Positions 35,349 to 63,422 of a stretch of 64,000 bases of DNA are shown here, in pieces. The position numbers were made by a program, and so were the translations under genes. The stretch lies in NCBI GenBank assembly GCA_964016885.1, contig OZ024749.1, positions 34,038,001-34,102,000 on the forward strand, read 5' to 3'. This DNA comes from Eledone cirrhosa (lineage: Eukaryota). The stretch's first letter is position 1. Each line of letters opens with the position of its first letter. The notes beneath the pieces are model-generated. The model was not told the DNA's origin. It did not search any database and worked only from the letters and a program-made list of their open reading frames with translations.

Positions 35349-35964
<616 letters not shown>

Positions 35965-36089
35965 GTGAATATAGACATAGAATATTCGAAAATATTCTGT
36001 ATGTTTATAATAAACATTTTGAAGACCTAATCGCTATAGAATAGAATACGTCACGTATTACAATTAGATTCTCGATAAAAGCAAGGGAA

Positions 36090-36132
36090 GTAATCTACGC
36101 GTTTCATTCTTGTTAGAAATCATCAGGACTAC
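36090..36132 (-). ncRNA. Type I hammerhead in the 310-bp unit (also 36400-36442, 36710-36752, 37020-37062, 37330-37372)
   Basis: gtagtc-CTGATGA-t ttct aaca agaa t-GAAA-cgcg-TA-gattac; 6-bp stem I, palindromic ACGCGT stem III, GUA cleavage site. Confidence 0.85.
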
Positions 36133-37624
36133 ATATCCAGTGCTTTTATCGAGAATGACACAGCTAGAGACTTATAGAATACTTAGCTGTGTACAGGAAC
36201 TGGTTTGAAAGAGCGGTTGCCGGTCCGGCAGAAATTAGAAATTGGAATAAATGCTCTGAAATAGCGATATATATGTGAATATAGACATAGAATATTCGAA
36301 AATATTCTGTATGTTTATAATAAACATTTTGAAGACCTAATCGCTATAGAATAGAATACGTCACGTATTACAATTAGATTCTCGATAAAAGCAAGGGAAG
36401 TAATCTACGCGTTTCATTCTTGTTAGAAATCATCAGGACTACATATCCAGTGCTTTTATCGAGAATGACACAGCTAGAGACTTATAGAATACTTAGCTGT
36501 GTACAGGAACTGGTTTGAAAGAGCGGTTGCCGGTCCGGCAGAAATTAGAAATTGGAATAAATGCTCTGAAATAGCGATATATATGTGAATATAGACATAG
36601 AATATTCGAAAATATTCTGTATGTTTATAATAAACATTTTGAAGACCTAATCGCTATAGAATAGAATACGTCACGTATTACAATTAGATTCTCGATAAAA
36701 GCAAGGGAAGTAATCTACGCGTTTCATTCTTGTTAGAAATCATCAGGACTACATATCCAGTGCTTTTATCGAGAATGACACAGCTAGAGACTTATAGAAT
36801 ACTTAGCTGTGTACAGGAACTGGTTTGAAAGAGCGGTTGCCGGTCCGGCAGAAATTAGAAATTGGAATAAATGCTCTGAAATAGCGATATATATGTGAAT
36901 ATAGACATAGAATATTCGAAAATATTCTGTATGTTTATAATAAACATTTTGAAGACCTAATCGCTATAGAATAGAATACGTCACGTATTACAATTAGATT
37001 CTCGATAAAAGCAAGGGAAGTAATCTACGCGTTTCATTCTTGTTAGAAATCATCAGGACTACATATCCAGTGCTTTTATCGAGAATGACACAGCTAGAGA
37101 CTTATAGAATACTTAGCTGTGTACAGGAACTGGTTTGAAAGAGCGGTTGCCGGTCCGGCAGAAATTAGAAATTGGAATAAATGCTCTGAAATAGCGATAT
37201 ATATGTGAATATAGACATAGAATATTCGAAAATATTCTGTATGTTTATAATAAACATTTTGAAGACCTAATCGCTATAGAATAGAATACGTCACGTATTA
37301 CAATTAGATTCTCGATAAAAGCAAGGGAAGTAATCTACGCGTTTCATTCTTGTTAGAAATCATCAGGACTACATATCCAGTGCTTGTAATACGTGACGTA
37401 TTCTATTCTATAGCGATTAGGTCTTCAAAATGTTTATTATAAACATACAGAATATTTTCGAATATTCTATGTCTATATTCACATATATATCGCTATTTCA
37501 GAGCATTTATTCCAATTTCTAATTTCTGCCGGACCGGCAACCGCTCTTTCAAACCAGTTCCTGTACACAGCTAAGTATTCTATAAGTCTCTAGCTGTGTC
37601 ATTCTCGATAAAAGCACTGGATAT

Positions 37625-37667
37625 GTAGTCCTGATGATTTCTAACAAGAATGAAACGCGTAGATTAC
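37625..37667 (+). ncRNA. Same hammerhead in the inverted arm
   Basis: gtagtcctgatgatttctaacaagaatgaaacgcgtagattac read directly on the + strand. Confidence 0.85.
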
Positions 37668-37826
37668 TTCCCTTGCTTTTATCGAGAATCTAATTGTAAT
37701 ACGTGACGTATTCTATTCTATAGCGATTAGGTCTTCAAAATGTTTATTATAAACATACAGAATATTTTCGAATATTCTATGTCTATATTCACATATATAT
37801 CGCTATTTCAGAGCATTTATTCCAAT

Positions 37827-47010: not shown

Positions 47011-48313
47011 ACTTCACACACACAGTGTGGTGTGGTGTGGTGTGGTGTGGTGTGGTGTGGTGTGGTGTGGTATGGTATGGTGTGGTGTGTGTGTGTAGTA
47101 GTAGTAGAGCATTCAGTCCATGGGATGAGTTTAGTAGAAGTTAGTTCCACAACAGTTAATAAACCATTAACGAGGACGCGCATTTCACCTTGCGATTTTC
47201 AACACGAGTGGCTGGGTTATAATGATGAGTATGTACGCCTTAACACTGTTGATAACTATTTATTGATATAGTGTTGCAAGCTTGATTCACCGAACAAATT
47301 ACATGTACACGGTGTTACATAACTACCTACTTTTAATTTAATCCGCTCAGCAACTCTGCTGCCAGCCTATGCTTCATTTATATGATGTAATGTGTTTGTA
47401 ATGTGTTTTTAATTCATTTTTATTAATTTTTAAGTAATTTCATTTTCATTCTTTTACATGATGATTGGGGAAGGGGGATGAGATATACTGATAACTTCTG
47501 TGACTGTTAATTAGGAGGAGTCGTTAGATCATCAACTGCAAATGTTTCGCAGTATTTGGTCCTCTTCCCTCTCTGAGTTTAAATCTCGCCAAGGTCATCC
47601 TTGCCTTTCATCTTTTCAATCTCACGTTAAATAATGTCCCACCTGCTCGAGCAACGAAAGTAATGCCTTGTGGTAACTTTTTCAGTCTTTTGCATTCTGA
47701 CTTTGCAATCAAACTCAGGATGCAAAAATACTGCCAAGCTCTATCAGCTTTTAGACAACGTCTGTAGTGTCAAGAGAAGAGACTGGTGGTCTTCCACCAA
47801 AACACCTTGATTAACCTACTTCCAGGTGCAATCGTTCTGAAGTTAGGACAAACGGATTGACGTCTCGTGGTCTAGTTGTTGGTGGGGTGTTGGGCATACG
47901 ATCATAAAGTGGTAGATTCGATTCCCTGATCAGGAGATTCGTTGTATTCTTTAACAAAGGACATTATTGGGCCATCAAGTATGGAATTTGTAGACATTTG
48001 GAGTAAAACAACAAATTTTTACAAATTTCATACTTGACACCCAATATTTCAGGCTGAAAATGGGCACCACTCATCTAATGGACTGTACTTTCACTCAACA
48101 CTCGTGAAATAGTATAATCTCAGGGTTTCATCGAGCCCATGCAATCATGGAAAGAGAATTAACAGAAAACAAGAAATTCTTTTTAAAAACAAGTATACAG
48201 CAGAATCGAAGTCAAAGACCTCACCTCGACTAGCGATTCTAAATCCTCATTCATACATACATATATATATATGTGTGTGTATTATATGTGTGTGTGTATA
48301 TATATATATATAT

Positions 48314-48708
48314 ATTATTAGAAATGTAAGCTATCGCCGTATTTTGACTAAAGAAATTAAAGAAATTATTTAGCCTGATAGTGGGGTTAAGAACCCTCGG
48401 AGAAATGGAAAAAGATGAGTATTGACGTACATAGGAGTCGAACCCACATCTTTGGTTATCCAGACCACTGTGCTACCATTTACACCAACACATCACCCAT
48501 GATATGTTGGTGTGAATGGTAGCACAGTGGTCTGGATAACCAAAGATGTGGGTTCGACTCCCATGTACGTCAATACTCATCTTTTTCCATTTCTCCGAGG
48601 GTTCTTAACCCTACTATCAGGCTAAATAATTTCTTTAGTCAAAATATAGCGATAGCTTACATTTCTAATAATTTCAAACCAACTCGCTGTTTCGAAAAAT
48701 ATTCTTAC
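48314..48708. mobile_element. tRNA-headed SINE-like element as a head-to-head inverted pair in (TA)n
   Basis: Cloverleaf at 48501-48572 (+) and 48423-48494 (-); A box tggtgtgaatggtag, B box gggttcgactccc; headless copy at 63175-63310 (-). Confidence 0.8.
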
Positions 48709-48768
<60 letters not shown>

Positions 48769-48794
48769 CATATATATATACACATATGTATAAG

Positions 48795-48825
<31 letters not shown>

Positions 48826-49495: not shown

Positions 49496-49500
<5 letters not shown>

Positions 49501-49680
49501 AAAATGTTTAACCCTGACGGCAGAGCTCAAGCCGTTTCGAAGGTCCAGAAATACCCGTCGAAACGGCTTCAGCTCTGCCGTCGGGGTTAAACATTTTCTT
49601 ATTACCCACTCTACTACCCTAAGTATTGAGTACTCTGGTGCGTTATGGTCCATCTGGTTTCTTACCGCCCTTCCTTCGTT
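49496..49680. mobile_element. Family A inverted pair
   Basis: Same family, (TA)n on both flanks. Confidence 0.85.
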
Positions 49681-62600: not shown

Positions 62601-63309
62601 AAATATACAAATGTGTATGCTGATGTATGACGGTACCGGTAAATTGATTGTCGGAAACCTGTAAACAACGACATCATTGTTCACCATTAATTCGTAAATT
62701 TTTTTTAAAATAAAAACATAATAACCATGTCCTGAAGAAGCTAATTATCGTATCAGTAATGTATGTAAATCTATTCTTTAGACATTACACCATTATCCTA
62801 TTTGCATAGTGATTCAAACATGATTACATCATTCTTATTTAAAATATATGTAGCAATTAGTTAACATTAATCAATGTTGTAACACAATTACTGCATCAAG
62901 AATCATTTTAGTCATTTAAAAGCACAAACACTTTTAGCTTTACTTTATGTGTGTGTGGGGGGGGGTTATATATATATATATATATATATATATACTGTTA
63001 TATTTGGGGTGGTCATGCTGTTAATATTGCCAATAGAAAGAAAACACACGCACCATATAATTTTCACTTTATTTCTATTGTTCGTTATTCATTCGTTTGT
63101 CTAAGTTATTTTGTCACACACTCTGTGACCTCAGATACATAAACGTGCATGTGTGCGTGGGGGGGGGGGGGGGTAAGTAAGTATGTTTTAAAACAGCGAG
63201 CGAGTTTGAAATTAGAATTAGGAGCTTTCGCCGTATTGTGACTGAGGAAAATTTGGCCTGATAGTGGGGTTTAGAATCCTCTAAGAAATGGAAAAAGATG
63301 AGTATTGAC

Positions 63310-63422
<113 letters not shown>

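Follow-up and report, generated by a model that had tools for sequence, protein, structure and literature searches.

A tandem, tRNA-bearing element of Eledone cirrhosa inserted in the manner of Penelope-like elements, with a tRNA-like fold that may mark its monomer ends

Introduction

Animal non-LTR retrozymes are hammerhead-bearing tandem units that have been proposed to be parasites of Penelope-like elements (PLEs) (PMC7229834; PMC7761336; 10.64898/2026.07.22.740005). As set out in two of these accounts, the case for PLE mobilisation is built on co-occurrence and on similarity to the PLE pLTR (10.64898/2026.07.22.740005; PMC7229834); 24 of 57 Xenopus retrozyme families matched transposable elements, nearly all of them PLEs (10.64898/2026.07.22.740005). 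RtcB is described as joining ends in retrozymes (PMC7229834), and the role of the hammerhead in PLEs themselves is called unknown in the cited part of PMC7761336. PLE insertions show partial tandems, an inverted 5'-truncated copy, a 30-40-bp tail at either end and (TA)n, and the cited sections state that such tandem and inverted forms and tails are absent from LINE TPRT (PMC8557442).

Here we describe an element found in a 64,000-nt window of the Eledone cirrhosa assembly (contig OZ024749.1, positions 34,038,001 to 34,102,000) that is of the non-autonomous PLE and retrozyme kind, outside SINE2 and outside retrozymes as defined. Like non-LTR retrozymes in the cited descriptions (PMC7229834; 10.64898/2026.07.22.740005), it has a tandem non-coding unit within 150-450 bp, low GC and forms ranging from monomers to multimers; in both cases mobilisation by PLEs is proposed and autonomous PLEs co-occur. 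Unlike them, it carries a tRNA-like fold, at a comparable distance from its ends, where each of their units has a type I hammerhead; in the GIY-YIG loci searched it has no match to a PLE pLTR, and it is they that are described as expressed in the form of linear and circular monomer RNA.

The partial tandems, inverted 5'-truncated copy, 30-40-bp tail and (TA)n are shared with Neptune/Nematis-type PLEs (PMC8557442, sections cited), but unlike endonuclease-bearing PLEs the element has no ORF, no hammerhead and no detectable kinship with the nine families sampled. MRC1 and other non-autonomous Chlamys PLEs resemble it in being non-autonomous, in their multicopy insertions in head-to-tail order, and in belonging to a clade without canonical hammerheads; unlike it, they generally share 3' ends with autonomous families, and a tRNA module is not in their description in the sections cited (PMC8557442). 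Sm-alpha and Sj-alpha are also tRNA-Gln-related, SINE-like and of similar size (335 bp), but they bear an active hammerhead beside the tRNA part, and a PLE insertion signature is not in the cited portion of their description (PMC2770079, PMC8490949). With the tRNA SINEs of cephalopods (octopus OK, OR1 and OR2, Ceph-SINEs; PMC4758252, PMC4824008) the element shares A and B boxes and thousands of copies, although in SINEs the head is 5'-terminal and goes with a LINE-type tail and TSDs, and the tRNA is internal here and followed by a T5 run; its separation from OK, OR1 and OR2, which were compared by name, is provisional. Set against SINE2 as a class, it has the A and B boxes and lacks a 5'-terminal tRNA, freedom from an early terminator, and a poly-A or terminal repeat with TSDs. 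Our literature search, in which most matches were judged by title-level record, returned no ribozyme-free, tRNA-bearing PLE parasite. An octopus repeat annotation reports 893 recently active 'unclassified SINE' families without sequences in the part cited (PMC13282606), so that a library entry under another label is possible.

Results and Discussion

The locus and the size of the family

At 48314-48708 of the window, two arms stand head to head with a 4-nt spacer between them and (TA)n tracts on both sides (Table 1). The cloverleaf that a preliminary description of this DNA had drawn, with its stems and GGA loop, is recovered on both arms by ARAGORN and by Rfam RF00005, both Rfam scores lying above the cut-off of 29 bits. 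The same description had the element ending in (TA)n without poly-A and its inverted arm stopping at an internal TAAT, and this is what the locus contains: the plus arm passes into (TA)n, and the inverted arm halts about 36 nt short. The arms differ by six substitutions and one 9-nt indel, which argues, as had been proposed, against a read fold-back. The outline of the element had to be redrawn, from about 210 bp starting with a tRNA head to a unit of 262-272 nt in which the tRNA is internal to a circularly permuted tandem; the forward arm of the window copy is without the ~50-nt linker that tandem copies have. A second copy, reported near 63175-63310, is real and 79% identical to the window element, but 'headless' does not describe it well: it belongs to an older subfamily in which the head is present in the other copies, and has itself been 5'-truncated.

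Table 1. Features of the window element and its surroundings, in window positions
Feature	Position	Strand	Basis or remark
Inverted arm, unit positions 1-182	48314..48495	-	ends at inner fixed end (TAAT) in (TA)n
Leader, 4-5 nt	48496-48500	-	adjoins inverted arm
Forward arm, tRNA start to outer fixed end	48500..48708	+	arm comparison
tRNA-like cloverleaf of inverted arm, 20/21 stem pairs	48423..48494	-	ARAGORN; Rfam 43.7 bits
tRNA-like cloverleaf of forward arm, GGA loop, 19/21 stem pairs	48501..48572	+	ARAGORN; Rfam 36.7 bits
A-box-like sequence (D arm)	48508..48519	+	sequence; consensus is general knowledge
B-box-like sequence (T arm)	48551..48561	+	sequence; consensus is general knowledge
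Unit positions 63-69, main 5'-truncation hot spot	48562..48568	+	copy-end survey
Trailer, T5 run at 48582-48586	48576..48592	+	predicted pairing with last 16-17 nt of linker, prolonging acceptor stem
Terminal part of forward arm	48673..48708	+	arm comparison; survey of 88 insertions; PMC8557442 (sections cited)
(TA)n target, left	48298..48313		sequence
(TA)n-rich target, right	48709..48818		sequence
5'-truncated copy of older subfamily, starts at unit 64 (hot spot)	63177..63315	-	similarity

The window locus has a segmental duplicate on a second contig (L001/L002); the two are about 95% identical along a stretch of 1.8 kb or more, and the duplicate shares the arm junction of the window copy. 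Whether the 9-nt indel could tell two templates apart was considered, but its state is not alike in the two duplicates and it is therefore unreliable in this role. Other minus-to-plus joints of the family are numerous in contigs of three public runs, which represent one sample, possibly that of the assembly itself; an assembly artefact is an unlikely source of the head-to-head locus.

The host genome is 3.0 Gb in size and rich in microsatellites. Searches with exact or one-mismatch patterns, for which control patterns gave 0, 0 and 1 matches, found the tail 25-mer 1290 times (exact), the head 21-mer 3056 times and the trailer 20-mer 9469 times. Since such matches count arms and units, they correspond to several thousand insertions. 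The head pattern had no match in metagenome and viral contig collections.

Anatomy of the unit

The unit is non-coding. After its 3' end the linker leads back into the tRNA, and partial tandem arrays run from 2 units to about 10 (L019/L020). Architecture and head are common to two subfamilies, one young and one older. The window copy has a U33-type loop, a minority state in its own subfamily (T in 52 of 178 pieces, the majority having C). The T5 run lies 10 nt behind the tRNA at unit 83-87 and is kept in 242 of 269 pieces. According to folding prediction, the end of the linker pairs with the trailer and adds 16-17 bp to the acceptor stem. Leader, tRNA and trailer together fold with z-scores of -3.3 to -5.0 (antisense -1.6 to -2.9), and in the minimum-energy folds the D and anticodon arms do not appear. 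Among leader variants the frequent ones are A-to-G changes opposite U, which lend weak support to the extended stem.

Two further properties were looked for and set aside. A viroid-like rod fold of the circular monomer was no more stable than shuffles (z -0.3 and +0.6), and there was no ADAR-type strand asymmetry, rare A>G changes occurring at 5.8 and T>C at 6.9 per 1000. One copy (L027, 1710-2239) has an inverted arm in which the initial ~58 nt of the tRNA are repeated six times before the tRNA is completed, which suggests repeated template slippage inside the cloverleaf.

Source and conservation of the tRNA module

Among the host tRNAs compared (Thr, Gln, Arg(ACG) and one transposon-borne tRNA), the closest is tRNA-Gln, with 40-47 of 73 positions identical and an almost identical D arm. 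Relative to it, and presupposing it as the source, nine of the 21 stem pairs have changed on both sides and eight of these nine are still paired (random expectation about 0.005). The young and the older subfamily differ in 2 of the 72 columns of the tRNA and in 1 of the 36 of the extended stem (four columns lacking coverage) versus 34 of 163 elsewhere, with a Fisher p of 0.001 for events counted by hand. Within the young subfamily the tRNA is mutated no less than the remainder of the unit, as decay following insertion would lead one to expect. In the extended stem the subfamilies differ by a few one-sided A-to-G wobbles, all transitions, and no change is two-sided.

The module does not behave as a functional host tRNA gene: identity is at most 47/73, the loop position is C in most young copies and the anticodon varies. 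Some host tRNA-Gln genes (L391, L392) have a trailer similar to that of the element, so that the captured sequence may have been an entire tRNA gene, terminator included.

Insertion signature

We sampled the first 100 listed tail matches on one contig (C1). These gave 90 loci covering 95 matches, five matches being left out, three of which were already represented; with two loci dropped as duplicates, 88 insertions remained. All members have the tail, because they were chosen by it. An inverted arm is present in 65 of the 88. Within 25 nt, (TA)4 occurs at 79 of 88 tail ends and at 69 of 88 opposite ends, against a background of 593 in 5063 windows (11.7%). No sampled insertion (0/88) has an A8 tail. 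None of the 88 shows a non-repetitive TSD; the six candidates are all microsatellite-like, TSDs being unreadable inside (TA)n. Inverted arms end at unit 177-184 in 55 of 65 cases and forward arms at 217-225 in 81 of 88, so that about 40 nt separate the two outer ends; at loci selected by the linker, forward arms end at either of the two sites. The linker is found upstream of the head in 19 insertions and a full head in 28. Outer ends are thus fixed, inner ends variable and truncation polarised.

Truncation with tandems, an inverted copy, a 30-40-bp tail and a bias towards microsatellites, the traits of PLE-type insertion, all occur together here. We conclude that the element was very probably moved by a Penelope-like element, a view common to the three readings that we rank highest. 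The preliminary description, which saw a Pol III SINE mobilised by a PLE, is supported in placing it with PLEs rather than LINEs, given the inverted arms and (TA)n ends, and is not supported as stated in calling it a Pol III SINE, given the internal tRNA and the T5; mostly single-armed copies with TSDs outside microsatellites, which it named as the opposing case, are not what the sample contains.

An ordinary LINE-dependent tRNA-SINE that targets microsatellites would account for a tRNA-derived 5' part with A and B boxes and for the insertions with a full head. This reading is largely refuted, and we consider it very improbable: it does not provide for the frequent inverted arms, the tail at one end only or the linker upstream of the head, and the element has neither poly-A nor a terminal repeat of its own, nor a non-repetitive TSD. 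Such tandem and inverted forms and tails are, moreover, not seen in LINE TPRT according to the cited sections of PMC8557442. Similarly improbable, and disfavoured, is an origin at the DNA level (as a fold-back element, MITE or satellite) or through misassembly, for which the palindromic look, the TA flanks and the arrays of ~10 units could be cited. Against it stand the fixed outer and variable inner ends, the polarised truncation, the divergence of the arms (mean identity 96.1%, identical in 3 of 31) and the many different places at which the minus-to-plus joints lie.

Where copies stop

Inner ends are concentrated at two places. With ends taken from BLAST, microhomology included, 49 of 153 fall at unit 63-69, a rate of 7.6% for each base at risk, and another 14 at 1-6, where the rate is 6.5%; in the rest of the unit it is 0.37%. 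The first hot spot coincides with three 4-nt palindromes, and fold-back may contribute to the stops there. It is not the whole cause, since 28 inverted arms stop at 63-69, and for 16 of these the forward arm has its stop more than 8 nt away. The second hot spot covers about -5 to +4 around the tRNA start. In a query-biased set of 155 distinct heads, 44 have 0-6 leader bases, 8 have 10-22 and 103 have the full leader, and 5' ends near the head are not single (+1/+2, GGG at -3, or CATGGG). Arm pieces that reach the head run on into the fixed upstream linker without a seam in 26 of 40 cases. The pattern of stops and the crossing into the linker together indicate that the template was likely a folded tRNA-sense RNA with an end near the tRNA start, circular or multimeric. 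An RNase Z product was rejected as the template, as stops at 63-69 keep 5-11 nt of the 3' strand of the tRNA.

These data bear on the possibility that what a PLE copied was a stable RNA, circular or multimeric, that arises in some other way, with the tRNA as a passenger or protective fold and the hot spots as mere stalls of reverse transcriptase at structure. The strongest hot spot is indeed at a stall-type position and at no processing site, and MRC1, as described in the cited sections of PMC8557442, is an existing ribozyme-free non-autonomous PLE with multicopy head-to-tail insertions. The second hot spot, however, is reached only once the fold has been passed, at the 5' edge on the far side of the tRNA, and the tRNA with its extended stem is better conserved than the rest of the unit; we regard this reading as unlikely.

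Penelope-like enzymes in the host genome

The genome contains 10596 GIY-YIG candidates. Long frames combine RT, a C-terminal GIY-YIG and a CxxxxCxxC linker, which is the Neptune/Nematis layout, and one RT+GIY-YIG family has at least 111 copies at 97-100% identity, many with a 775-aa frame. Intact young elements of this kind coexist with the tRNA element. Families with RT and GIY-YIG have (TA)n at their ends, and in two of them there are alternative ends, separated by 41 nt in one (L283/L342) and by 38 nt in the other (L273/L365); these families end about 150-245 nt after the hammerhead core, and from the tRNA start to the ends of the tRNA element it is about 180 and 220 nt. The 3' UTRs of the young families L271, L272, L277, L283 and L273 have variant hammerhead cores (U3-A8, U3-G8, and GCAA replacing GAAA); minimal hammerheads and the U3-A8 variant are described in the cited part of PMC4209133.

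The 3' tail, which the preliminary description proposed to compare with PLE and LINE 3' ends, has no match at E<0.05 in 90 GIY-YIG loci (404 kb), bar one nested copy. This search covered nine families among 59 clustered loci drawn from all the candidates, a scope that other clades may escape. A 15-nt match in the 3' UTR of one family (E ~8) was discarded as weak and far from the end of that family. None of these families shares sequence with the element, and partnership with a PLE therefore rests on signature, not homology.

Search for a hammerhead in the element

Rfam, run on a trimer of the unit, found only the tRNA. A relaxed hammerhead descriptor, which recovered 3 of 7 controls, was blank on both strands of four natural multimers, and a core-only scan detected no conserved hammerhead core on the sense strand. 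A GAAA-palindrome-UC motif near the tail was examined as a hidden hammerhead and rejected, having no core and being absent from the older subfamily. On the plus strand at window 48375-48405, antisense to the element, CUGAUAG, a conserved hairpin and GAGAAA resemble a decayed hammerhead, whose core is not intact; this candidate was likewise rejected.

How the monomer end may be set

The reading that we tentatively prefer is that a PLE copies a monomer, that the tRNA marks where this monomer ends, likely as a cut site of RNase P, and that the stem between leader and trailer closes it. RNase P, Pol III and circularity are inferred here, the RNase P step with a little more reserve than the reading as a whole. 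Transcripts of tandem copies would have the sense of the tRNA and would come from read-through or from Pol III that leaks past T5, and RNase P would cut before each cloverleaf and release a monomer. Pairing of the linker end with the trailer would then keep the monomer's two ends in contact, the circle being nicked or ligated. From both target strands the PLE enzyme would prime at internal AT-rich sites, one at unit ~180 and one at ~220, giving head-to-head arms; it would often stall on entering the tRNA (63-69), sometimes run off at the tRNA 5' end, and otherwise cross the junction to generate tandems. The wider proposition, that a class of Penelope parasites swapped the hammerhead for a tRNA mimic, with host RNase P cutting monomers and the leader-trailer stem holding pseudo-circles for rolling reverse transcription, is more tentative again.

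Several observations speak against the RNase P reading. No PLE sharing the tail appeared in the GIY-YIG loci searched, the 5' ends near the head vary, and a start by Pol III would explain the class at -3 just as well. Between subfamilies the extended stem has changed on one side only, at few places and by transitions, and the circular monomer as a whole does not exceed shuffles in stability (z -0.3). RNase P may be hindered by pairing of the leader and by a U(-1):A73 pair, and the ends that RNase P leaves differ from the kind that RtcB joins in retrozymes.

The main rival is that the PLE-mobilised element uses its tRNA only as a Pol III internal promoter, with a start ~3 nt before the head, a leaky T5 and tandems formed through multimeric transcripts or template jumps without host cutting. 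We consider this possible, if somewhat unlikely. It agrees with the intact A- and B-box sequences, with several truncated heads that start with GGG ~11 nt before the A box, with the likeness of the trailer to those of the host tRNA-Gln genes mentioned above, and with Sm-alpha as a tRNA-Gln-derived, SINE-like precedent. The retention of T5 counts against it. In 9 of 23 tRNA-like genes retrieved the first T-run is only T4-T5, so T5 should terminate, and with so conserved a T5 behind the tRNA, Pol III is expected to terminate short of the ends that serve in integration. A promoter alone has no need for paired acceptor and T stems, yet eight of the nine two-sided changes are paired, and the seamless crossing from head into linker is not accounted for either. 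The promoter-only and RNase P readings can combine, and a role of Pol III for the element is possible.

The element provides insertion-level evidence for ribozyme-free, PLE-style movement of a small non-coding unit. A substrate of ~270 nt allows end formation (by RNase P or Pol III) to be separated from priming and integration, and the young intact PLEs of this genome could supply the enzyme. If the exchange of hammerhead for RNase P is true, the job of the hammerhead in PLEs would be only to define RNA ends, and a host processing enzyme could replace it. If the tRNA is only a promoter, the element is still SINE-like with a non-LINE partner, a combination of which our literature search found no description. 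In genomes rich in PLEs, elements without a LINE partner may also lie concealed in 'tRNA-SINE' bins.

Other tRNA-bearing and hammerhead-like sequences

Host tRNA-Gln arrays (L380-L388, L406) hold copies with a CTA (amber) anticodon, most of them with a damaged anticodon stem; in one (the L406 match) the stem seems to be kept. A dispersed ~1.7-kb family (L323, L325-L333, about 1195-2960) starts after TA, has inverted repeats and carries a tRNA gene that scores 53-72 bits, has a T-run and varies in its anticodon (mostly GGC). The family has the look of a non-autonomous DNA transposon in which the tRNA is a passenger.

Between 14941 and 63550 of the window there are 28 hammerhead-core-like matches from several families, some of them in head-to-head pairs (such as 23190/23312 and 31640/31828). 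A near-perfect palindromic insert of ~100 nt lies in (TA)n at 49500-49600, and a relative of this sequence occurs in L281. At 35957-37826, between (TA)n tracts, a 310-nt hammerhead-bearing unit is present in 4.6 identical tandem copies with an inverted arm; this is a retrozyme-like insertion, and its geometry is the same as that of the tRNA element.
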